12,204 nt of DNA from a virus (IMGVR_UViG_2667528155_000014), one strand, 5' to 3'; positions 1,219-12,204 are shown, counted from the stretch's first letter. Numbers and translations are program-made. Notes: a model not told the origin generated them from the letters alone.

Positions 1219-1508
1219 TGTCCGGGTTACGTAAAGCAGCTAAAGGTCGGCAGTGCCAGGTGAGAATTCCCGGATACTGTAACCATAACCCTGAAACCTC
1301 GGTTCTGGCCCATTACCGTCTGGCCGGTACCTGTGGAGCATCAACCAAACCCAACGATATGCAGGCATCTATTGCCTGTAGCTGTTGTCATGACCTGATT
1401 GATGGCCGGATAAAAACAACAGACTTTACCCGCACCGAACTTCGGTTAATGCATGCCGAAGGCGTAATGCGTACGCAACAAATCTGGAGAGAGGAGGGAT
1501 TAGTATGA
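1218..1508 (+). CDS. DUF1364-family Cys-rich protein (YbcO-like, putative nuclease of the nin region)
   Basis: 96 aa with conserved Cys pattern (CQVRIPGYC ... CSCCH); 1-nt overlap with upstream gene and ATGA overlap with downstream gene indicate translational coupling. Confidence 0.6.
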   Translation: MSGLRKAAKGRQCQVRIPGYCNHNPETSVLAHYRLAGTCGASTKPNDMQASIACSCCHDLIDGRIKTTDFTRTELRLMHAEGVMRTQQIWREEGLV

Positions 1509-2044
1509 TCTACCCGGTCACGACAGGTAAACCTGGTGAAATGCTTCGTCTCACTACGCTTGAGACGTTATGGGTACAGGGAAAGCTAAGAATGTGGGGG
1601 CGCTGGTCTTATATCGGAAATGGCCATCCGGGAAATATCTTCAATCAGTTGCTGGTCAGTAAAAAAATCACCCGCACAGGCGCCCGTGATGCGCTCAGGC
1701 TGCTTAAAAAATCAGGCACTACCAGGCCTGAACTGGAGCAATTTTTACGTGAGATATTGAACGGTAAGCAGAAAAGCTACCTTGCATACTGTACTGATTC
1801 TGAAGCACTGATAATCGACCGGGTTATCGGGGCAGTTCTGGCAGATCATCCCGCACTAAAGGCACTGCTTCACCAGCGTTACGAAGGACGGGGAATGAGT
1901 AAGCGAAAGATAGCTGAGAAACTTCAGGAAAAATACCCTGACTGGAGTTATGTTACCTGTCGGCGACGAATCGACCAATGGCTGTATATGGTTGAATACA
2001 TGCTTTATATCCCGCTACGGGATTCCATTGATAGGAATGTGTGA
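1505..2044 (+). CDS. putative late-gene antitermination protein Q-like
   Basis: 179-aa ORF immediately upstream of the late regulatory region and lysis genes, coupled to the nin genes. The call rests mainly on position in the lambdoid gene order; family not verified. Confidence 0.5.
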   Translation: MIYPVTTGKPGEMLRLTTLETLWVQGKLRMWGRWSYIGNGHPGNIFNQLLVSKKITRTGARDALRLLKKSGTTRPELEQFLREILNGKQKSYLAYCTDSEALIIDRVIGAVLADHPALKALLHQRYEGRGMSKRKIAEKLQEKYPDWSYVTCRRRIDQWLYMVEYMLYIPLRDSIDRNV

Positions 2045-2308
2045 TGAGTTGTGCTTATCCACTAACTGAAACTTGACAGTAAAAAGCTGCGGGTGATTTT
2101 TGTGGAAATATCAATGTGCAAGATGAATGGAAGTATAACTAAGTTATATCAGTGTTTAAATGCAGGCGAAGAGTAATAAAGCATATGATTAAGGTCAAAT
2201 TACGTCGCTGAAAAAGTATTGCAATTTGAGCCATAAACTGCTTCAATCACTGTATGCTTCGCAAAGCTGTATCGCGAGGTCAAGGATGCAGAACATGAAC
2301 ACCAGATG

Positions 2309-2339
2309 AACCCGCCACGGTGCGGGTTTTGTCGTTTTT
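2309..2339 (+). terminator. rho-independent terminator
   Basis: Stem AACCCGC / GCGGGTT with 6-nt loop CACGGT, followed by TTTTGTCGTTTTT. Confidence 0.6.
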
Positions 2340-2360
2340 AAAAGACGGCTTCAGGTGGAC

Positions 2361-2435
2361 CTACTTGCCAAAAATCAGTGCGAAGATGAGCGCAATAACA
2401 CAGATTGCGATAGCCATTTTTTCATGACACGGCAT
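2361..2435 (-). CDS. tiny hydrophobic peptide (24 aa MPCHEKMAIAICVIALIFALIFGK; 18 aa from the internal ATG at 2417)
   Basis: Minus-strand ORF below the ORF-track size cutoff; GGAG 8 nt upstream of the ATG at 2435; almost entirely hydrophobic; sits between two terminators. Confidence 0.2.
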   Translation of the reverse strand: MPCHEKMAIAICVIALIFALIFGK

Positions 2436-2450
2436 TCTCAGTTCTCCGTA

Positions 2451-2479
2451 TAAAAAAGGGCCCGCGTCAGATAGCGGGC
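2451..2479 (-). terminator. rho-independent terminator, minus-strand orientation
   Basis: Stem GCCCGC / GCGGGC (8-nt loop); on the minus strand it is followed by a T6-7 tract (plus-strand TAAAAAAGG). Confidence 0.45.
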
Positions 2480-2647
2480 AAAATCACAATTGGAAAAGGT
2501 AAGAGGCTTAAGTGCTTCATAGGGGGAAGCCTGAGGACCGTAGTAATTTCTTCATAAACCTATCAAGTTCGTATCTGCAATTGTTTAAGTTCTGTTTAAT
2601 TTCATATGCGCAGATTCACATTTTGGCATTTCAGCAAAATAAATATC

Positions 2648-2711
2648 TTGTCAGCCGCTGTCTGCGGGTAATAGGTTCCCCCCGTTGCAGTGAATCCCAC
2701 TAGCGTAGGGG
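2648..2711 (+). promoter_or_regulatory. promoter-leader module copy A (TTGTCA -35 at 2648-2653, ATAGGT -10 at 2671-2676, conserved leader hairpin 2686-2711)
   Basis: sigma70-like hexamers 17 bp apart with CTGCGG in the spacer; leader TGCAGTGAATCCCACTAGCGTAGGGG is homologous to copies B and C; candidate PR'-type late promoter. Confidence 0.4.
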
Positions 2712-2803
2712 CATCGTCAGGTTTCGCTTCCACTGTTGACGTTGCGGTTAATACCATCGGGAGGCACCCGGCACTGCGGCAAATTGAAAACGGCGGTAAT
2801 TCA

Positions 2804-2830
2804 GGGCTCACTTCGGTGAGCCCTTTTTCA
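2804..2830 (+). terminator. rho-independent terminator (tR'-like, ~120 nt downstream of module A start)
   Basis: Perfect 8-bp stem GGGCTCAC / GTGAGCCC with TTCG tetraloop, followed by TTTTT. Confidence 0.7.
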
Positions 2831-2853
2831 TTTCGCCGACATGATAAAAAGCT

Positions 2854-2915
2854 TGATCTAAAGCACCTGCCGTTTATACGTTACCTCCTGCGGTGAATCT
2901 CACCAGCGTGAGGGG
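2854..2915 (+). promoter_or_regulatory. promoter-leader module copy B (TTGATC -35, ATACGT -10, leader TGCGGTGAATCTCACCAGCGTGAGGGG at 2889-2915)
   Basis: Same architecture as copy A; CTGCCG in spacer; leader contains overlapping inverted repeats GGTGA-ATC-TCACC and CTCAC-CAGC-GTGAG. Confidence 0.4.
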
Positions 2916-3402
2916 TGTGGCACTATTCATTCTGCCAGTATGTATTGCACCACACCATGGATACGTTTCACCGGGTTGCGACCGGCACCGCACTCATATC
3001 GGGTCGTGGAGATAGATTATTCGGGCTCTACTTTTAAATTGGTCATTGATGTGATTTCTGAGCGGGAAAATGCAGAATAAATACAGAACTGCTAATGCTC
3101 TAAAGGCATATTTACGCAGTATCAGATTTACAACGAATCAGGTATTCTTAATTAGCATCATTCTGTTGGTCATCGGATTATTAGGGGCAATAAAACTTAG
3201 TGTATGGGCTCTATTGAGTTGAACAATAGTTACATGCTAATAAGATTTATCGCTTTATCTCCTTTTTTGGCGTAATAATTCAGGTAGGGTGGGTGTTAAC
3301 AGTCTATTTAACTTGTTTGTGATTTACAGCCGAACAGATTGACTGTTGTAGCCTGCTGGTGATTTGTTTTTCTCATTCCTTTTTTACTTGGAGTGATGAA
3401 CA

Positions 3403-3837
3403 ATGATTACTATCGTACTGAATAAAATTAACCAGATCTTATCCCATGCTGACTTTGGTAAGTTCCTGTTAAGACTTGCTGTTGGTGGGCTGATGTTATT
3501 TCATGGTTTGCATAAGCTCTTTGCAGGAGTTGAAGGTATTAGCGGCATGCTTATAGCTAACGGCTTACCTGGATTTTTCGCATACGGAGCAATTGTGGGA
3601 GAGGTTTTGGCTCCAGGCCTGATTATTCTTGGGGTTCTTACTCGCCCCGCAGCACTGTTGCTGGCTTTTACAATGATTGTGGCCTGGCTTCTGGTGGGGG
3701 TAGAGGAAACATGGATGCTCGAAAGTACTGGCGCGTGGGGAATAGAAAGCCTGGTGTATTTTTTTGTTGGCTCTCTGTCAGTTGCATTACTGGGGGCAGG
3801 GCGTTATTCGGTCGCCAGGGGAACTGTATGGAATTAG
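3403..3837 (+). CDS. DoxX-family integral membrane protein (moron/cargo gene)
   Basis: 144 aa, four hydrophobic segments, LMLFHGLHKL-type N-terminal helix typical of DoxX proteins; GGAG 9 nt upstream of ATG; AT-rich upstream region. Confidence 0.6.
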   Translation: MITIVLNKINQILSHADFGKFLLRLAVGGLMLFHGLHKLFAGVEGISGMLIANGLPGFFAYGAIVGEVLAPGLIILGVLTRPAALLLAFTMIVAWLLVGVEETWMLESTGAWGIESLVYFFVGSLSVALLGAGRYSVARGTVWN

Positions 3838-3886
3838 TAAACCTGGATGGATGAATACACATTTAATGAACAGGGATGATGACGTT

Positions 3887-3913
3887 GAAAAAAGCCCGTC
3901 ATACAGAACGGGC
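3887..3913 (-). terminator. hairpin with T-tract on the minus strand (possible minus-oriented terminator)
   Basis: Stem GCCCGT / ACGGGC with 8-nt loop; plus strand has A6 upstream of the stem, so the U-tract is on the minus-strand transcript only. Confidence 0.3.
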
Positions 3914-4076
3914 AAAATCACACATAAGCAGAAAATAATTGAGGTCGCTTCATGGGAGAAGCAGAAAGAACATAATGATTTTTTTCTGAACCGGTCAAGT
4001 GTGATGTCTTAGCTTTTTGAAGGTTTAATTCTCCGTGCGCAGTTTCGCATTTTGAGTAATTTATTTGGAAGAGGCC

Positions 4077-4140
4077 TTGCCTGCCAGAATCTGCGGACGA
4101 TAAATTTTTCTCATTGCGGTGAATCTCACTAGCGTTGAGG
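4077..4140 (+). promoter_or_regulatory. promoter-leader module copy C (TTGCCT -35 at 4077-4082, ATAAAT -10 at 4100-4105, leader 4115-4140), likely promoter of the tRNA/lysis transcript
   Basis: Best-matching hexamers of the three copies, 17-bp spacer with CTGCGG; leader TGCGGTGAATCTCACTAGCGTTGAGG; a shared CCGGCACCGCA box at 4211-4223 directly abuts the tRNA. Confidence 0.45.
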
Positions 4141-4228
4141 CTTGCTGAAATGGAGAATTTTCGCGAAGCAGATTGTGTATCAGCGCGCAATCTACCGGAA
4201 TAATAGCGGTCCGGCACCGCAGCGTCAT

Positions 4229-4305
4229 GGCCCTTTAGCTCAGTTGGTCAGAGCGTGCGACTCATAATCGCCAGGTCGCTGGTTCAAGTCCAGCAAGGGC
4301 CACCA
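4229..4305 (+). tRNA. tRNA-Ile2 (anticodon CAU, lysidine type; by anticodon alone could also be tRNA-Met)
   Basis: Full cloverleaf: acceptor GGCCCTT/AAGGGCC, D-arm GCTC...GAGC, anticodon loop CTCATAA, T-arm GCTGG-TTCAAGT-CCAGC, encoded CCA. T-arm and anticodon arm match my recollection of E. coli ileX; a prophage copy would be ileZ-like. Confidence 0.85.
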
Positions 4306-4308
4306 AAA

Positions 4309-4384
<76 letters not shown>

Positions 4385-4649
4385 GTTTTGAATGGGCGCT
4401 GCTTTTTGCAAAATTGCTGTGTAAAAATACTGACCTTCCGGTCCAGCGCTCATCCAAAAGCACTCCGTTAAAATCCTGGCAACCATGGGTGGTTTGTTGG
4501 ATGGAGTGCCTCCGAATAATAAAACTCGCGTTATAAAGGCTGCGCATTTGCGTGGCCTTTTTCGTATTCAGATCTGCAGCATACTCAGCCCGGAAGGCTG
4601 AATTTTTTCACCAGTACACAGCACCATCCGGAAACCGGGGGTGAGGTAT

Positions 4650-4985
4650 ATGAAAATGAATGACAAAAACCCTGAATTCTGGGCGGCGGTTTTGACCGGA
4701 CTCAAAAATGCGTGGCCCCAGTTACTGGGGGCATCAATGGCCGGACTCATTGCTTATGCCCGCCTGATATACGATGGCGTCACGCGAAAAAATAAATGGC
4801 TTGAGGGCGTCCTTTGTGGCGCCCTTTCTTTATGTATCACCAGTGCGCTGGATGCGTTTGGCCTTCCTGTATCGATATCACCCTTTGTCGGTGGCGTGAT
4901 TGGCTTCGTCGGCGTGGATAAATTACGTGAAATTGCCATCAGTGCGCTTAAAAAACGGGCAGGGATAAATGATGAGAACCAGTAA
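4650..4985 (+). CDS. S: class I holin, lambda S-like, with dual-start motif (Met-Lys-Met)
   Basis: MKMNDKNPEF... starts at ATG 4650 and ATG 4656 behind GGGGGTGAGG; three hydrophobic segments; C-terminus KKRAGINDENQ resembles lambda S KKAGVEDGRNQ as recalled. Confidence 0.85.
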   Translation: MKMNDKNPEFWAAVLTGLKNAWPQLLGASMAGLIAYARLIYDGVTRKNKWLEGVLCGALSLCITSALDAFGLPVSISPFVGGVIGFVGVDKLREIAISALKKRAGINDENQ

Positions 4986-5391
4986 AATTTCTCGCGGGAT
5001 CCGCAACAACAACCCCGGCAATATCCGGTGGGGTGATGAGTGGCAGGGCCTGGTACCCAAAGCACAGCGCACTGATAAATCATTCTGCCAGTTCACTACG
5101 CCTGAGTATGGTATCCGGGCGATGATCATCATCCTGCGCAATTACCAGCGTAAGCACGGGCTGAACACGGTTACCGGCATTATTAAACGCTGGGCGCCGC
5201 CGAACGAGAACAACACGCTGGCGTATATCAACAACGTGGCTCAGGCGACGGGTGTTACTCCCGACCAGCGCATTGATACCAGTGACAGTCGTTTCATGAT
5301 GAAGCTGTTGCAGGCCATTATTAAGCACGAGAACGGTAGCCAGCCATACAGCTTTGATACGTTTATCCGCGCGCTCGAACTGGCGGGTTAA
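4969..5391 (+). CDS. putative endolysin (small peptidoglycan hydrolase, family not resolved; N-terminal RNNNPGNIRWG motif)
   Basis: 140 aa, no TM segment, start overlaps the holin stop. Assignment rests mainly on position between holin and Rz/Rz1. Confidence 0.55.
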   Translation: MMRTSKISRGIRNNNPGNIRWGDEWQGLVPKAQRTDKSFCQFTTPEYGIRAMIIILRNYQRKHGLNTVTGIIKRWAPPNENNTLAYINNVAQATGVTPDQRIDTSDSRFMMKLLQAIIKHENGSQPYSFDTFIRALELAG

Positions 5392-5539: not shown

Positions 5540-5677
5540 ATGAAAAACGGCCTTGAAATAGATGCTCCGTTAACAAAAGAAATCAGTAGTGCTACGGCAT
5601 GGGCTATACGGGCTGTGGCGTTGACGGTTGTGCTGTATGGTATTGCGCGCCTGATTGTGGCGATTCGCTGGTGGTAG
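5540..5677 (+). CDS. small protein with C-terminal transmembrane segment (45 aa), unknown function
   Basis: ATG at 5540 preceded by GAGG at 6-nt spacing; hydrophobic AWAIRAVALTVVLYGIARLIVAI; stop 5 nt before the Rz start. Below the usual size threshold, hence low confidence. Confidence 0.3.
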   Translation: MKNGLEIDAPLTKEISSATAWAIRAVALTVVLYGIARLIVAIRWW

Positions 5678-5681
5678 AGCC

Positions 5682-6254
5682 ATGAACCGTATAACGATTA
5701 TCGCAATAATTTCGTTCCTGGTTGTGGTTGTTATGCTGGTATTCAGCCGGGCCGACCTTGCTGTATCAGAAAGTGATAACCGGATCCTTCGCAATGATAA
5801 CGCGCTACAGGGGCAGGTTATCGCCACTCAGGTTTTCAACTTTAACCGGTTTAATCAGGTTGCTGATAATACCAGCCGCCTTAACTCCCTGATTGATGCC
5901 GGTTCCGAAAAAACAGTTATTGAATACCGGGAGATACTCCGTCGTGAAAAAACCTGTGATTTGCCTGTTCCTGCTGATATCGCTGACGGGCTGCTCGACC
6001 ACGCGTACCGTTTACGTGCCAGCGCAATGTACCCCGATCCCCGGAACGCTGATGCAGCCGGTGGTGACACCATTACCGCCAGCTCTCTGACATACTGCCA
6101 GGCTGTTCTCTGGATCGGGCCGCTGCTGGCTACTATTGAGAAGGCGAATAACCAACTGACTGGTATCAGTAAAATTGAGTTGGAACGCAAGCAACTAGGA
6201 AAAATTATGGAGTTAAAGGACAGAGACGTTAAGGTTGTAAATCATTTTAAATGA
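5682..6254 (+). CDS. Rz: Rz-like inner-membrane spanin (i-spanin)
   Basis: MNRITIIAIISFLVVVVMLVF N-terminal signal-anchor like lambda Rz (MSRVTAIISALVICIIV), then a long charged/helical periplasmic domain; contains an embedded +1-frame lipoprotein ORF. Confidence 0.8.
   Translation: MNRITIIAIISFLVVVVMLVFSRADLAVSESDNRILRNDNALQGQVIATQVFNFNRFNQVADNTSRLNSLIDAGSEKTVIEYREILRREKTCDLPVPADIADGLLDHAYRLRASAMYPDPRNADAAGGDTITASSLTYCQAVLWIGPLLATIEKANNQLTGISKIELERKQLGKIMELKDRDVKVVNHFK
5944..6090 (+). CDS. Rz1: Rz1-like outer-membrane lipoprotein spanin (o-spanin), embedded in Rz in the +1 frame; GTG start (alternative in-frame ATG at 5893)
   Basis: VKKPVICLFLLISLTGC lipobox (LTGC) followed by a proline-rich mature region (TPIPGTLMQPVVTPLPPAL); GGGAGA 9 nt upstream of GTG 5944; entirely inside Rz. 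Confidence 0.75.
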   Translation: MKKPVICLFLLISLTGCSTTRTVYVPAQCTPIPGTLMQPVVTPLPPAL

Positions 6255-6433: not shown

Positions 6434-7342
6434 CTATTGAAGGAAGTTCCGAGCCCGAAGAAAGTTTTGAGCAATCAGGTCGCCAATTGGATTTAAAACA
6501 TATGAATTAAAGTCATTTATGGTCGATACGCCAAATGCATCTAGAGTTAACTTTAAAGCAGGAAATGTTTCAAAGAACATCTCATCGCTTTCAAAGCTGG
6601 TGATTCCAGTCCTTTTTCCAAGTAGGTCTTGATAGTTTGTTATGTATTGCTTGTCTGTGAAGATAACGCCTTTTAAGCTGAGGAGATCAATGTTTATTTT
6701 TCTCAAAGACTCTATTTTATCTAAGAATTTAATGTAATCAATATCATAGCGAGCATAGTATTCTTTGTGGGCTGAATGGTTTTGCTCTACGGTAAAGCCA
6801 ATTAATCCAAAGTGAGTTTCATTTCTTTCAGCAAGAGCTGTCATGTTAATACCGTTTCGTATCTTATTTATGTTTCTGAGGTAATATATTAGAGAGAGAA
6901 ATTTAATGTCGTTTGTTGTTAATTTAGATGTCACCTCAAGAGCGTGATCTATAACTATACTATCCTCTTCTTCTTCAGTTTGAATTTTAGAAACGATTAG
7001 CTCTTTAAGTAACTCCGATTTTTCATCAAATCCTTTTCGAGCCACCTGAGTTACAGCTTGGTTCATCGAATATTGAATGTCAGGGTCGGATAATTTCTCT
7101 TTTAATTTATGATCAAGATCACTAGAAAGTTTAGCTGCAATCTGATTACCAAATTCTATCGCTCGTTGGTTTACAAGTTTATATGCTTCCTCTTTTAAAG
7201 AAGCCATTTGTGCTTGAACTACTAATTCACAGATAGTAACTACTTCAGTAGTAGTATTACCAATGATAGCATCACCGGTTACTTGGATTGCGGTAGAACC
7301 ATCTCCGACATGTTGACCCGACTTATGATCGAAAAGACTCAT
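6434..7342 (-). CDS. hypothetical 302-aa protein, AT-rich cargo gene of unknown function (candidate phage-exclusion/defence component)
   Basis: Long clean ORF antisense to the late operon; AAGGA 6 nt upstream of ATG 7342; ATGA overlap with the upstream small ORF; no family recognised by inspection. Confidence 0.7.
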   Translation of the reverse strand: MSLFDHKSGQHVGDGSTAIQVTGDAIIGNTTTEVVTICELVVQAQMASLKEEAYKLVNQRAIEFGNQIAAKLSSDLDHKLKEKLSDPDIQYSMNQAVTQVARKGFDEKSELLKELIVSKIQTEEEEDSIVIDHALEVTSKLTTNDIKFLSLIYYLRNINKIRNGINMTALAERNETHFGLIGFTVEQNHSAHKEYYARYDIDYIKFLDKIESLRKINIDLLSLKGVIFTDKQYITNYQDLLGKRTGITSFESDEMFFETFPALKLTLDAFGVSTINDFNSYVLNPIGDLIAQNFLRARNFLQ

Positions 7343-7584
7343 TTTTTGTCCTTTTCATTAATGGTTAAATTACCACTGACTTGTATTCCTGAAGAGTTAT
7401 TACCAATCACTTGGCTTATAGAGGATGACTTCTTCTTGTCACTTATTAAGTTGGCTACAGCAGTTAGAAAAGCCCCTAAGCTGACTAAGAAAGCCAGTAG
7501 AGAAGCCAGTCCATGATGCTGGTATGCCTGATACCCGAATCCGCATGTTGCAACGAACGAAATTAGACAGATTAACTTTCTCAC
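7339..7584 (-). CDS. small two-TM membrane protein (81 aa, GTG start), coupled to the 302-aa ORF
   Basis: Two hydrophobic segments followed by a Ser/Lys-rich tail with repeated xQVxGN motif; stop overlaps the downstream ATG; GTG start with weak GAGAG upstream, so start and reality are less certain. Confidence 0.45.
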   Translation of the reverse strand: MRKLICLISFVATCGFGYQAYQHHGLASLLAFLVSLGAFLTAVANLISDKKKSSSISQVIGNNSSGIQVSGNLTINEKDKK

Positions 7585-7933: not shown

Positions 7934-8010
7934 GTTACGGGGCGGCGACCGTGTGGATTCTCTCTATTTATGAATATTGTCCACTATTTGCCATTTCCGT
8001 TTTTCTCTCC
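7934..8010. other. lambda-type cos region: cosN-like 12-mer GGGCGGCGACCG at 7940-7951 with flanking cosQ-like and cosB(R3)-like sequence
   Basis: GTTACGGGGCGGCGACC is identical to the lambda cohesive-end junction as I recall it (lambda GGGCGGCGACCT); downstream CTATTTATGAA and TTTCCGTTTTTCT align with lambda left-end sequence at the same spacing. Confidence 0.6.
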
Positions 8011-8140
8011 GAGTACAACATGATTTCTATCCAACAAACAGGGCAACGCCGATGCCAGCACGTGCTAAACGTCCATGCCGACAAGGGACGTGCGGCAATC
8101 ATAGTCGCATTGCACGCGTATAAATAACAAGGAGGGGGGA

Positions 8141-8374
8141 ATGCGCCTCACTGTATTAGATGATGATCCCGGCAGGAAGATTGATATCAGAGTAGAGCGG
8201 TACACTGTCTATCTTGATGGTGTTGATGTTAAGCGCGCGCTCACTGCTGATGATGAGAAAGGTGAAGTAATCGCTGTTGCATGTGATGAATATGGCCACG
8301 CGACCATAGAGAACGGCGAAGTGAAGAGGCAGATGCTTTACGGCTTAGTGAGGATTGAACGGTGTCCGCACTGA
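8141..8374 (+). CDS. hypothetical small protein (77 aa) at the head of the packaging module
   Basis: Strong Shine-Dalgarno AAGGAGGGGGG before the ATG; acidic protein; not recognised. Confidence 0.6.
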   Translation: MRLTVLDDDPGRKIDIRVERYTVYLDGVDVKRALTADDEKGEVIAVACDEYGHATIENGEVKRQMLYGLVRIERCPH

Positions 8375-9425: not shown

Positions 9426-11118
9426 TCCAGCCACGCAGTATGCAATGGATGTGGGTACCGGTAAGAAAATTGCCGGACCAGATATTCGTAATGCCTGTAA
9501 ACGTCATTTGCGCGATCTTGAATTTGGGCATAAGCGCGGCTTGTCATGGGATACAGAAGCAGCACTACGCGCGATTGATTTTTTTGCGAAGGTACTGAAG
9601 CTTAACGGTGGGGAGTTTGAAGGAGAACCCTTCATTCTGTTGCCCTGGCAGTGCTTTATTGTGGGATCCATTTTTGGATGGAAACGGCGGAACGGGGCGC
9701 GCCGCTTTCGTACCGCTTATGTGGAATCAGGCAAGGGATCAGGTAAATCCCCTCTGGCGGCAGGGGTTGGCCTGTACTGCATGACTGCGGATAAGGAGCC
9801 CAGGGCCGAGGTGTATGCTGCGGCGACGAAAAAAGACCAGGCTATGGTGTTGTTTCGTGATGCGGTGGCGATGGTGGATCAATCACCGGCGCTGGCACAA
9901 CGTATCAGCAAATCAGGAGGGGCGGGCAAAGAGTGGAATCTGGCATTTTTGCAGACGGGATCATTTTTCCGCCCGATTAGTTCTGATGACGGGCAGTCAG
10001 GCCCACGACCACATTGTGCCTTGATTGATGAAATCCATGAGCACAAAAGCAACATTGTGGTTGAAATGATGCGGGCTGGTACAAAAGGCAGGCGTCAGGC
10101 GCTGATTTTCATGATAACTAACAGTGGTCATGACAAAACCAGCGTCTGCTATGACTATCACCGGTACGGACAAAAAGTCGCAGCCGGACAACTGGATAAT
10201 GATGCATTTTTCTCTTTCATTTGTTCCCTTGATGAAAGAGATGATCCCTTCCAGGATGAATCCTGCTGGCCAAAAGCGAACCCTTCCATGGGGCATACAT
10301 TTGAGGACAGTTATTTACGGGAACAGGTTGATGATGCCCGCGGTATTCCGTCCAAAGAGAGCATTGTACGACGCCTTAATTTCTGTCAGTGGGTTGATGC
10401 TGAAAATCCATGGATTAGCAGTGATGCCTGGATGGCATGCGAAAAAAAATTCGATCCTGAAGAGTTCCGGGGGCAGATTTGTTACGGAGGACTGGATCTT
10501 TCCGGCAAAAGAGATCTCACTTCTCTTTCTCTGTATTTCCCTGGAAGCAATGCGTTGCTTACTGAGTTCTGGACGCCGCGCGATACACTTTTCGATCGCG
10601 CAAGGGTGGATCGTGTTCCTTATGACGTCTGGCTGAAGAAGGGGTATGTACACGCGCCGCCAGGTGCTGCAATTGATTATGGCTTTGTGGCAAAACGTCT
10701 GGCAACACTTGCTGCAATGTTCGACATCCGTAAGGTGGCGTTCGACAGTTACCACATTGATTACCTTTTGCCGGAACTGGATGATGAAGGTGTAAACATC
10801 CCACTGATTCCGCACGGCCAGGGATTCGGCAAGTCCGCCAAATCCGGACTGTGGATGCCGCATTCCATTGAGTTGTTTGAACAACTCATCATGGATAAAA
10901 AAATAAACATCGTACTCAACCCCTGCCTTCGCTGGTGTGCGGCCAATGCCGTTATAGAGGAGGACAAAAGCGGAAACCGTGTATTCAGCAAGCGTCGCAG
11001 CAATGGGCGTATTGATGGCGTGGTGTCCGGTGCCATGGCAATTGGTGTTGCAGGATCCTGTGAAGATGACGGCGACGGCGATATCAGTGATTTCTTTAAT
11101 GACCCCATATTTATGTGA
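9379..11118 (+). CDS. terminase large subunit (Terminase_1/HK97-like)
   Basis: ~580 aa; conserved N-terminal TQYAMDVGTGKKIAG...CKRHLRDLE, Walker A-like SGKGSGKS, and a nuclease domain with acidic residues; start overlaps the terS end (ATG 9379; alternative ATG 9445 would remove conserved residues). Confidence 0.9.
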   Translation: MVEKKTKIRSTSSSVDPATQYAMDVGTGKKIAGPDIRNACKRHLRDLEFGHKRGLSWDTEAALRAIDFFAKVLKLNGGEFEGEPFILLPWQCFIVGSIFGWKRRNGARRFRTAYVESGKGSGKSPLAAGVGLYCMTADKEPRAEVYAAATKKDQAMVLFRDAVAMVDQSPALAQRISKSGGAGKEWNLAFLQTGSFFRPISSDDGQSGPRPHCALIDEIHEHKSNIVVEMMRAGTKGRRQALIFMITNSGHDKTSVCYDYHRYGQKVAAGQLDNDAFFSFICSLDERDDPFQDESCWPKANPSMGHTFEDSYLREQVDDARGIPSKESIVRRLNFCQWVDAENPWISSDAWMACEKKFDPEEFRGQICYGGLDLSGKRDLTSLSLYFPGSNALLTEFWTPRDTLFDRARVDRVPYDVWLKKGYVHAPPGAAIDYGFVAKRLATLAAMFDIRKVAFDSYHIDYLLPELDDEGVNIPLIPHGQGFGKSAKSGLWMPHSIELFEQLIMDKKINIVLNPCLRWCAANAVIEEDKSGNRVFSKRRSNGRIDGVVSGAMAIGVAGSCEDDGDGDISDFFNDPIFM

Positions 11119-11123
11119 AGCCT

Positions 11124-12204
<1,081 letters not shown>

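Follow-up and report, generated by a model that had tools for sequence, protein, structure and literature searches.

A DoxX-family membrane protein gene as candidate conversion cargo between the antiterminator and lysis genes of a lambdoid prophage

We analyzed a stretch of viral DNA of 12,204 nucleotides (IMGVR_UViG_2667528155_000014; hereafter the window, meaning the whole stretch), which covers late regulatory genes, lysis genes, and packaging genes of a lambdoid prophage, and within it the open reading frame (ORF) at positions 3403-3837 on the plus strand, designated doxX. This gene stands in a small island between the gene of a Q-like late antiterminator and the lysis genes. The reading that we favor, to which we assign a probability of roughly 0.55, is that the island is cargo of the Q-to-lysis interval that supplies a functional DoxX protein, probably together with a single-transmembrane (TM) protein of 50 aa, that it is expressed in the lysogen from an RNA module termed M2, and that its role is in redox chemistry. 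The gene may then be one of lysogenic conversion.

The doxX ORF begins with ATG, has a GGAG sequence placed nine nt 5' of this codon, and encodes a predicted inner-membrane protein of 144 aa with four TM helices. An earlier note, made from the DNA letters of the window, had described a 144-aa four-helix membrane protein with a DoxX-like sequence, and both descriptions stood up well. A hidden Markov model search against Pfam PF07681 gave 74.4 bits over a cutoff of 23.6 (E = 1.1e-20, profile positions 2-83 of 85), while hydropathy analysis and an AlphaFold model of low confidence, based on a shallow alignment (predicted local distance difference test score 62.5; helices 15-41, 55-76, 81-102, and 108-130), agreed on four helices, and the loop charges were compatible with an N-in/C-in orientation. 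By profile and topology, the ORF is a genuine member of the DoxX family, and databases already label the protein 'DoxX family protein', whereas a literature search found no paper on a DoxX gene in a lambdoid prophage. PHROG hints to a 'quinone oxidoreductase TQO' family were weak (27 bits), and a PDB sequence search detected no solved structure. Identity with HvfX, a maturation protein of copper-binding ribosomally synthesized and post-translationally modified peptides (NCBIfam NF050144), was rejected, as the score was 27.5 bits against an equivalog cutoff of 80, and it was also disfavored by the lack of DUF692/DUF2063 neighbors in the window. The idea of a defense system was dropped because PADLOC gave no match for DoxX, the 50-aa protein, or neighboring non-core genes. 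Taken together with the conservation described below, doxX is very probably a functional DoxX cargo gene.

The nearest relatives of the phage DoxX are chromosomal proteins of the same length (144 aa), which share 64-78% identity with it and are collinear over residues 1-144. In 74 out of 80 species-representative genomes, their gene is transcribed divergently from poxB, with hcr-hcp following it; the poxB-adjacent gene occurs in Citrobacter, the Klebsiella oxytoca group, Raoultella, Kluyvera, Enterobacter, Lelliottia, and E. fergusonii. The earlier note had regarded DoxX as a host-type rather than a phage structural or lysis protein, and these syntenic chromosomal orthologs bear it out. Only one of 5,426 complete E. 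coli genomes held a relative of doxX, at the native poxB-hcr site. As E. coli and Salmonella are normally without the gene, the phage re-supplies it. The phage doxX most probably descends from this chromosomal gene of many Enterobacteriaceae. Homology between the phage and the Citrobacter loci is limited to the coding sequence, and because doxX is located in a prophage between Q and the holin gene, in the middle of the late region, whereas its chromosomal counterparts are lone genes between poxB and hcr-hcp, it is a xenolog and not a positional ortholog.

In the tree, a long branch leads to the phage DoxX, and no chromosomal protein is a close sister to it. The phage protein keeps 45 of the 47 residues that are invariant among 67 chromosomal orthologs (H34, H37, K38, E67, R81, W95, and E115 are among the shared ones) as well as 77 of the 84 highly conserved ones, and wherever it departs from conserved residues the change is conservative. 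The ratio of nonsynonymous to synonymous substitution rates (dN/dS) between phage and chromosomal doxX was about 0.10, as compared with 0.11-0.12 for chromosomal pairs, dS being saturated. Between the window and the sole diverged variant of the locus (L098), we counted three nonsynonymous and eight synonymous changes in doxX (dN/dS 0.12). In a composition test, the doxX coding sequence (GC 0.47; GC at third codon positions [GC3] 0.43) resembled phage genes, whereas the median GC3 of the chromosomal genes is 0.63 and the upstream 360 nt have 35% GC. These sequence features mark doxX as a long-standing resident of phage-like DNA that has been ameliorated and maintained by selection, and neither as a fresh capture nor as a decaying relic.

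Upstream of doxX, the ORF listing contains a frame of 50 codons with one TM segment, orf50 (3070-3222, plus strand), which probably encodes a small membrane protein, and doxX is preceded by about 350 bp of AT-rich DNA with about 35% GC versus 46% for the window (orf50, 0.353; 3223-3402, 0.356; whole window, 0.464). Both features had been pointed out earlier and were found as described. Gene callers leave orf50 uncalled in loci of the window type, while a longer version of 86 aa is called as a gene in L098. It is an orphan with one homolog only in the homolog search, and it matched no family in profile searches or PADLOC. Between the window and L098, its frame is kept (dN/dS 0.21; changes by codon position 11/4/12), and the other reading frames are full of stops. 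A PhoP box in the region upstream of doxX was considered and rejected, since the site at 3294-3310 has two mismatches and is not above chance.

The left border of the island is the 3' remnant of an antirepressor-like ORF6N gene (2211-2337, plus strand; ~80% identity to the 3' ends of E. coli ORF6N genes; terminator at 2308-2329), and the right border is a tRNA gene with a CAU anticodon (4229-4305, plus strand; ARAGORN; Rfam 71 bits) of the ileZ type, whose counterparts in E. coli prophages are annotated as tRNA-Ile/ileZ. Because 2211-2337 is merely an ORF6N remnant, the island proper spans about 2338-4228 (1.9 kb). Upstream lies the Q-like antiterminator gene (DUF1133/Phage_antitermQ; 1505-2044, plus strand; PF06576, 288 bits; PF06530, 29.8 bits; PHROG 753 'anti-termination protein Q-like'), and downstream the lambda-type holin gene S (4641-4985, plus strand; PF05106, 128 bits; TIGR01594, 133 bits) starts the lysis cassette.

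An identical DoxX protein was present in 182 blocks of public assemblies, in records of E. coli, Salmonella enterica, and 'MULTISPECIES Enterobacteriaceae'. In all loci examined, doxX lay between a DUF1133 Q gene and lysis genes, with differing flanks: the Q protein has 179 or 184 aa with different C-termini, a module of IsrK/C4 and ORF6N is present or absent (ORF6N is intact in L001, L002, L004, L005, and L006), and three lysis cassettes occur. Across such prophages, a 2.1-kb block from 2211 to 4305/4370 of the window is 99.4-99.6% identical, and copies of the island differ by at most three single-nucleotide polymorphisms over 1,891 nt. In the diverged L098, homology to the window begins at 2846, seven nt 5' of the -35 element of M2, and identity amounts to 79.5% in M2, 82% in orf50, 95% in the 180 nt proximal to doxX, and 97.5% in doxX itself. 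This starting point, together with the absence from L098 of the preceding module M1, indicates that M2-orf50-DoxX moves as a unit.

The presence of this cargo varies in the way known for morons, since the same interval is otherwise filled in two other prophages. In an stx-less O157-type prophage (L016), the stretch from ORF6N to the tRNA is occupied by hypothetical and helix-turn-helix genes, and in an Stx2 phage the order is Q - ileZ/argN/argO - stx2AB - STnc100 - esterase - holin. The claim of the earlier note that doxX occupies a cargo slot of the stx type is therefore sound: the Stx2 phage carries stx2AB in this very interval between Q and the holin gene. Porin genes such as nmpC/lc are further Q-S interval cargo of lambdoid phages. 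We consider the island as cargo, or a 'moron', in the Q-S slot, ordinary in the kind of locus, which is well known, but with a payload that is new there and undescribed. Like the stx1/stx2 morons with ileZ-argN-argO, it is located between Q and the holin gene, co-oriented with the late genes, beside the same tRNA genes, flanked by STnc100, and variably present among related prophages. Unlike the known Q-S morons, it carries a host-type membrane protein and not a toxin or porin, its tRNA genes are downstream of the cargo and not upstream as in stx phages, it has no dedicated terminator, and its expression in the lysogen is putative.

The island appears to be rare. A tblastn search of DoxX against 50,697 deposited phage genomes returned no match. 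Megablast and blastn searches of the island against 5,426 complete E. coli genomes and the same phages matched only the tRNAs and the ORF6N remnant, and these searches returned no DoxX-less twin of the island. It was found once in IMG/VR. Each copy of the exact Q allele of the window is accompanied by doxX, which defines no empty site.

Two further observations concern the same interval. In an otherwise identical prophage (L013, 6654-6995), an extra gene for a YecR-like protein of 113 aa is inserted at the position equivalent to ~2125 of the window, between Q and the island, which marks the Q-proximal spacer as another insertion point. Moreover, a set of c4-a1b1/IsrK/C4 antisense RNAs lies directly 5' of the ORF6N/antirepressor gene (L001/L004, ~7990-8200; L016, 4166-4366; L141, 1123-1321). 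It resembles the P1-type ant immunity module and is located just downstream of Q in prophages with a DUF1133 Q, and elsewhere in the Stx2 phage.

The interval also contains three copies of an RNA module related to STnc100, a prophage small RNA (sRNA) akin to PasD (bioRxiv 10.64898/2026.05.13.724894). All are on the plus strand, and the core of each opens with a 21-nt box, TGCRGTGAATCYCACYAGCGT, at 2686, 2889, and 4115, respectively. M1 (2657-2834) reached 66.2 bits with Rfam RF02076 (gathering score 47), whereas M2 (2865-3035), which would be the structured leader of the orf50-DoxX unit, and M3 (4115-4221), which has no terminator and directly adjoins the tRNA, remained below gathering at 23 and 30.6 bits. 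Only M1 thus combines a score above 47 bits with a terminator, a strong intrinsic one at 2803-2824 followed by a U tract (fold z = -2.4), and on this evidence it is a bona fide STnc100-family sRNA gene; its absence from L098 places it outside the DoxX unit. M2 and M3 keep the core fold, and each of the three modules, folded by itself, takes the multibranch form of canonical STnc100, in which a closing stem of 7 bp encloses a 5' hairpin, a variable center, and a 3' CCGG hairpin. The multibranch core of M2 (2889-2991) is closed by GCGGUG/CACCGC, 7/7 paired, and is followed by a weak hairpin with U4 at about 3006-3036, which is not conserved in L098. When six copies were compared (M1-M3, M2 of L098, and the canonical copies of L016 and the Stx2 phage), the closing stem was 7/7 paired in all of them in three sequence versions, and the changes are therefore compensatory; in M2 of L098, an A-to-G change also yields a G.U pair in hairpin 1.

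The earlier note had assigned doxX its own copy of a promoter-leader module and had called 2454-2834 a late promoter region. The repeat is real, as the three STnc100 copies demonstrate, but the copy belonging to doxX is M2, which scores below gathering, and the late promoter region could not be substantiated: in Stx2 phages this RNA family is located downstream of stx2B and not at pR'. It has been reported 75 nt downstream of stx2B (PMC12370729), and we confirmed this position in the Stx2 phage (Rfam, 158 bits). In contrast to stand-alone STnc100 sRNAs, M2 and M3 are without a terminator and would be 5' leaders of cargo (orf50-DoxX and tRNA, respectively), and the presence of three tandem or dispersed copies also sets this Q-S interval apart from the usual STnc100 setting. 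The likeness of the modules to the 6S RNA of lambda pR'-tR' and to StxS is one of analogy.

The modules are widespread in IMG/VR. A structure-aware pattern, GGTGAATCYCMC followed by a gap of 72-102 nt and CCGGCACY, matched at least 120 loci (L143-L262), as compared with about 27 in a rough chance estimate. Among the matches listed, 17 loci have two or three module copies, and a terminator lies within 100 nt of 103 of 140 copies, in contrast to M2, which has no conserved one; the remaining 37 of 140 have none nearby. Downstream neighbors among these matches were a SASA esterase (25 loci), holins (19 loci), and a TolA-C lipoprotein (4 loci), while upstream ones were a DNA methylase (17 loci), Q proteins (15 loci), a TerB protein (11 loci), and Stx2B (4 loci). 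By these neighbors, the modules habitually stand where the cargo slot meets the late genes, a position that would suit portable leaders and recombination joints. A 15-mer scan of IMG/VR, which gave 39 loci, was discarded, as the matching 3' stem occurred only in the island and the rest was chance.

Each module is preceded by a promoter-like element of the pattern TTGNCN-18-TANNTT, 7-8 nt before the closing stem and of the same geometry in M1 (2648-2677), M2, M3 (4077-4106), and L098 (TTGATT-18-TATGTT). In M2, this element (TTGATC-18-TACGTT; 2853-2882, plus strand) has a position weight matrix (PWM) score of 8.4 and ends 7 nt before the closing stem. The M3 element (TTGCCT-18-TAAATT) is the best plus-strand promoter-like site between 2000 and 4700. 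The second best is a candidate doxX-proximal sigma70 promoter in the AT-rich spacer, 150 nt upstream of doxX (TTGAAC-16-TAAGAT; 3219-3246, plus strand; PWM 10.5), which is identical in L098. Both 2853-2882 and 3219-3246 are conserved in L098, though neither outscores shuffled sequence. RpoD binding at STnc100 promoters has been reported by chromatin immunoprecipitation with exonuclease digestion (ChIP-exo) in uninduced S. Typhimurium LT2 (PMC10794520). Downstream of doxX, no plus-strand terminator was found between 3837 and 4535, that is, from the doxX stop codon through the tRNAs, the next one being at 4535-4560, and the hairpin at 3894-3913 is followed by a U tract only when read on the minus strand. 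It follows that doxX is certainly part of any Q-antiterminated late transcript. As far as terminators can be predicted, doxX, M3, and the tRNA gene or genes must form one transcription unit.

In the favored reading of the island as lysogen-expressed cargo, M2 would be an STnc100-type promoter with a structured leader that has lost its efficient terminator, which would permit low-level read-through into orf50-DoxX-M3-tRNA in the lysogen, with a possible contribution from a second promoter at 3219-3246. On induction, Q-modified RNA polymerase would pass the M1 terminator and give high-level expression of doxX with the tRNAs and lysis genes. DoxX would be a membrane protein interacting with quinone or quinol and would link the quinone pool with redox chemistry of the envelope or of thiols, and the lysogen may thereby withstand oxidative, quinone, or hypochlorite-type stress somewhat better.

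The proposed biochemistry draws on characterized members of the family. MexG of P. aeruginosa binds the quinolone Pseudomonas quinolone signal (PQS) via its DoxX domain (PMC5477026), DoxX of M. tuberculosis joins SseA and SodA in a thiol-oxidoreductase complex, and the doxX operon of H. influenzae is induced by hypochlorous acid (PMC7907618). MexG, the M. tuberculosis protein, DoxD/TQO of Acidianus, and the HvfX-type DoxX of H. influenzae have the Pfam domain and the character of a small polytopic membrane protein in common with the phage DoxX. However, all are distant from it, and their partner genes (an RND [resistance-nodulation-division] pump, SseA/SodA, DoxA, and DUF692/DUF2063) are not near doxX in the window. 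By analogy, the phage DoxX may bind quinones or quinolones or have a quinone-linked oxidoreductase activity; that a lysogen displays any particular stress phenotype is less likely than not.

Several findings weigh against the favored reading. (i) On the plus strand between 2000 and 4700, no sigma70 site scores above the mean top score of shuffled sequence (11.8). (ii) M2 does not reach the Rfam gathering score. (iii) The gene lacks the terminator of its own that is typical of a moron and is certain to be co-transcribed with the late genes. (iv) The near-invariance of the island indicates mostly recent spread and tells little of selection in these hosts. (v) The poxB and hcr neighborhood of the chromosomal relatives reflects vertical synteny and not a demonstrated coupling; a functional link to poxB/hcr was in fact discarded, as this synteny is lost in Aeromonas. 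(vi) E. coli already possesses the DoxX paralogs YqjF and YphA, so that a new phenotype from the phage DoxX is not guaranteed (entries for both proteins in the RNase E interactome are probably non-specific membrane hits and uninformative). We put expression of doxX in the lysogen at about an even chance.

In one alternative, doxX is expressed essentially only on the Q-antiterminated transcript and serves the lytic phase, for example by maintaining quinone/redox balance and membrane energization until holin triggering, with no lysogenic conversion. The gene runs in the direction of the late genes, and the plus strand has no terminator from M2 to the tRNA and holin genes. The strong M1 terminator upstream (2803-2824) would stop transcription that is not antiterminated; no convincing autonomous promoter was found, and a distant DoxX-like family, phrog_4606, is filed by PHROGs under 'moron, auxiliary metabolic gene and host takeover'. 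However, the conserved promoter-like element of M2 is located downstream of that terminator, the AT-rich spacer contains another candidate promoter, and RpoD occupies STnc100-type promoters in uninduced Salmonella (PMC10794520). Furthermore, the lack of any DoxX relative in 50,697 deposited phage genomes would be odd for an aid to lytic growth. We regard the late-only alternative as unlikely, though more likely than the two that follow.

In a further alternative, DoxX, perhaps jointly with orf50, would have been co-opted to modulate lysis timing or to exclude superinfecting phages and would have left its ancestral redox role. The position immediately 5' of the holin-endolysin-spanin genes, the pairing with a second small TM protein unique to the island, and the long branch of DoxX with 12 phage-unique residues and seven departures at columns conserved to at least 90% (control median, one) would fit such a change. 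On the other hand, 45 of 47 invariant positions are kept, every departure is conservative, and dN/dS equals that of the chromosomal orthologs and hence gives no sign of neofunctionalization. In addition, PADLOC gave no match, and three different lysis cassettes accompany the island, which is consequently not co-adapted to one holin. Altogether, this makes co-option improbable. Equally improbable is an intact but functionless passenger hitch-hiking with the STnc100 modules and tRNAs: recent clonal spread of the near-invariant island could account for its intactness, none of 5,426 complete E. coli genomes carries this rare element, and the prophage of the window is itself disrupted by ISEc31, but GC3 at phage values and dN/dS of about 0.1 speak for long selection outside the chromosomal context, and the sole diverged variant retains 97.5% identity in doxX, with mostly synonymous changes, as against about 80% in M2 and orf50.

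Should doxX be expressed in the lysogen, the virulence and fitness slot that is best known in lambdoid phages would have a new class of payload, namely an inner-membrane protein with a link to redox chemistry or quinones, missing from E. coli and Salmonella but kept by their relatives. It would then also give access to the function of enterobacterial DoxX proteins. A further hint from the arrangement is that STnc100/PasD modules, catalogued as sRNAs, can be expression leaders and cargo junctions. A bolder, speculative, and unlikely extension is that these elements are portable cassettes of promoter and structured leader that delimit and drive Q-to-lysis cargo: terminator-bearing versions would release an sRNA, terminator-less ones such as M2 and M3 would be leaky leaders for expression of orf50-DoxX and the tRNAs in the lysogen, copies would act as homologous-recombination joints that swap stx, TerB, methylases, and DoxX, and DoxX with orf50 would give back to lysogens of E. 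coli and Salmonella an envelope redox function that had been lost. The gene being rare and already annotated, its practical importance is modest for now.

Apart from the modules, the island and its immediate surroundings contain several further elements. On the minus strand, at 2451-2532 and 3885-3964, there are two homologous putative sRNA genes of about 75-80 nt, both of which have a GCUUC/GAAGC hairpin on the 5' side, an unpaired UGUGAUUUUG stretch, and a U6 terminator. Their fold z values are -2.0 and -3.6, respectively, and neither had an Rfam match. They are preceded by the promoter-like sites TTGATA-18-TACGGT (2566-2537) and TTGACC-18-TATGTT (3998-3969), the latter having the best sigma70 score between 2000 and 4700. 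The putative sRNA at 3885-3964 is convergent with doxX and ends 57 nt past its stop codon. A perfect PhoP-box consensus, TGTTTAAGTTCTGTTTA, is located at 2582-2598 (plus strand; no mismatches, about 0.002 expected by chance) between the other putative sRNA and M1, and the corresponding site 5' of M3 has no such box. Between the ORF6N remnant and M1, a very hydrophobic ORF of 18 codons, MAIAICVIALIFALIFGK, was read by eye on the minus strand (~2360-2416); it has the look of a type-I toxin or of a small membrane peptide, and an obvious Shine-Dalgarno sequence is absent. Past the right border, 4316-4373 (plus strand) is a 5'-truncated or hybrid tRNA-Arg(UCU)-like sequence that covers only positions 8-63 of the Rfam model and was uncalled by ARAGORN. 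In L001 and related loci, three intact tRNA genes, ileZ-argN-argO, are present, and overlapping BLAST pieces suggest a deletion via recombination between the two Arg tRNA genes. The adjoining stretch 4341-4512 has ~90% identity with 44474-44702 of phage HK639, which is an unannotated region close to the right end of that phage; HK639 is noted for RNA-based antitermination.

The rest of the window has the layout of a lambdoid late region. Two regulatory genes, DUF1367 (619-1218) and YbcO (1218-1508), precede Q. The holin gene is followed by genes of an endolysin (4969-5391) and an Rz-like spanin (5655-6254), both with PHROG matches, and the packaging genes comprise the small and large terminase and an insertion sequence (IS)-cut portal gene. 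Between the lysis and terminase genes, a minus-strand pair (6434-7584) encodes a 302-aa protein (Pfam Vpar_1526 in the precomputed annotation; PHROG 19542) and an 81-aa TM protein; it gave no PADLOC match and has the appearance of another cargo insertion. At the end of the window (11115-12204), ISEc31 of the IS3 family interrupts the portal gene (11115-11972), with the C-terminus of the transposase at 11976-12182 on the minus strand. This IS element matches copies in many E. coli genomes with 99.6% identity. From the interrupted portal gene, this prophage copy is probably defective, and from the E. coli copies, its host is probably E. coli.

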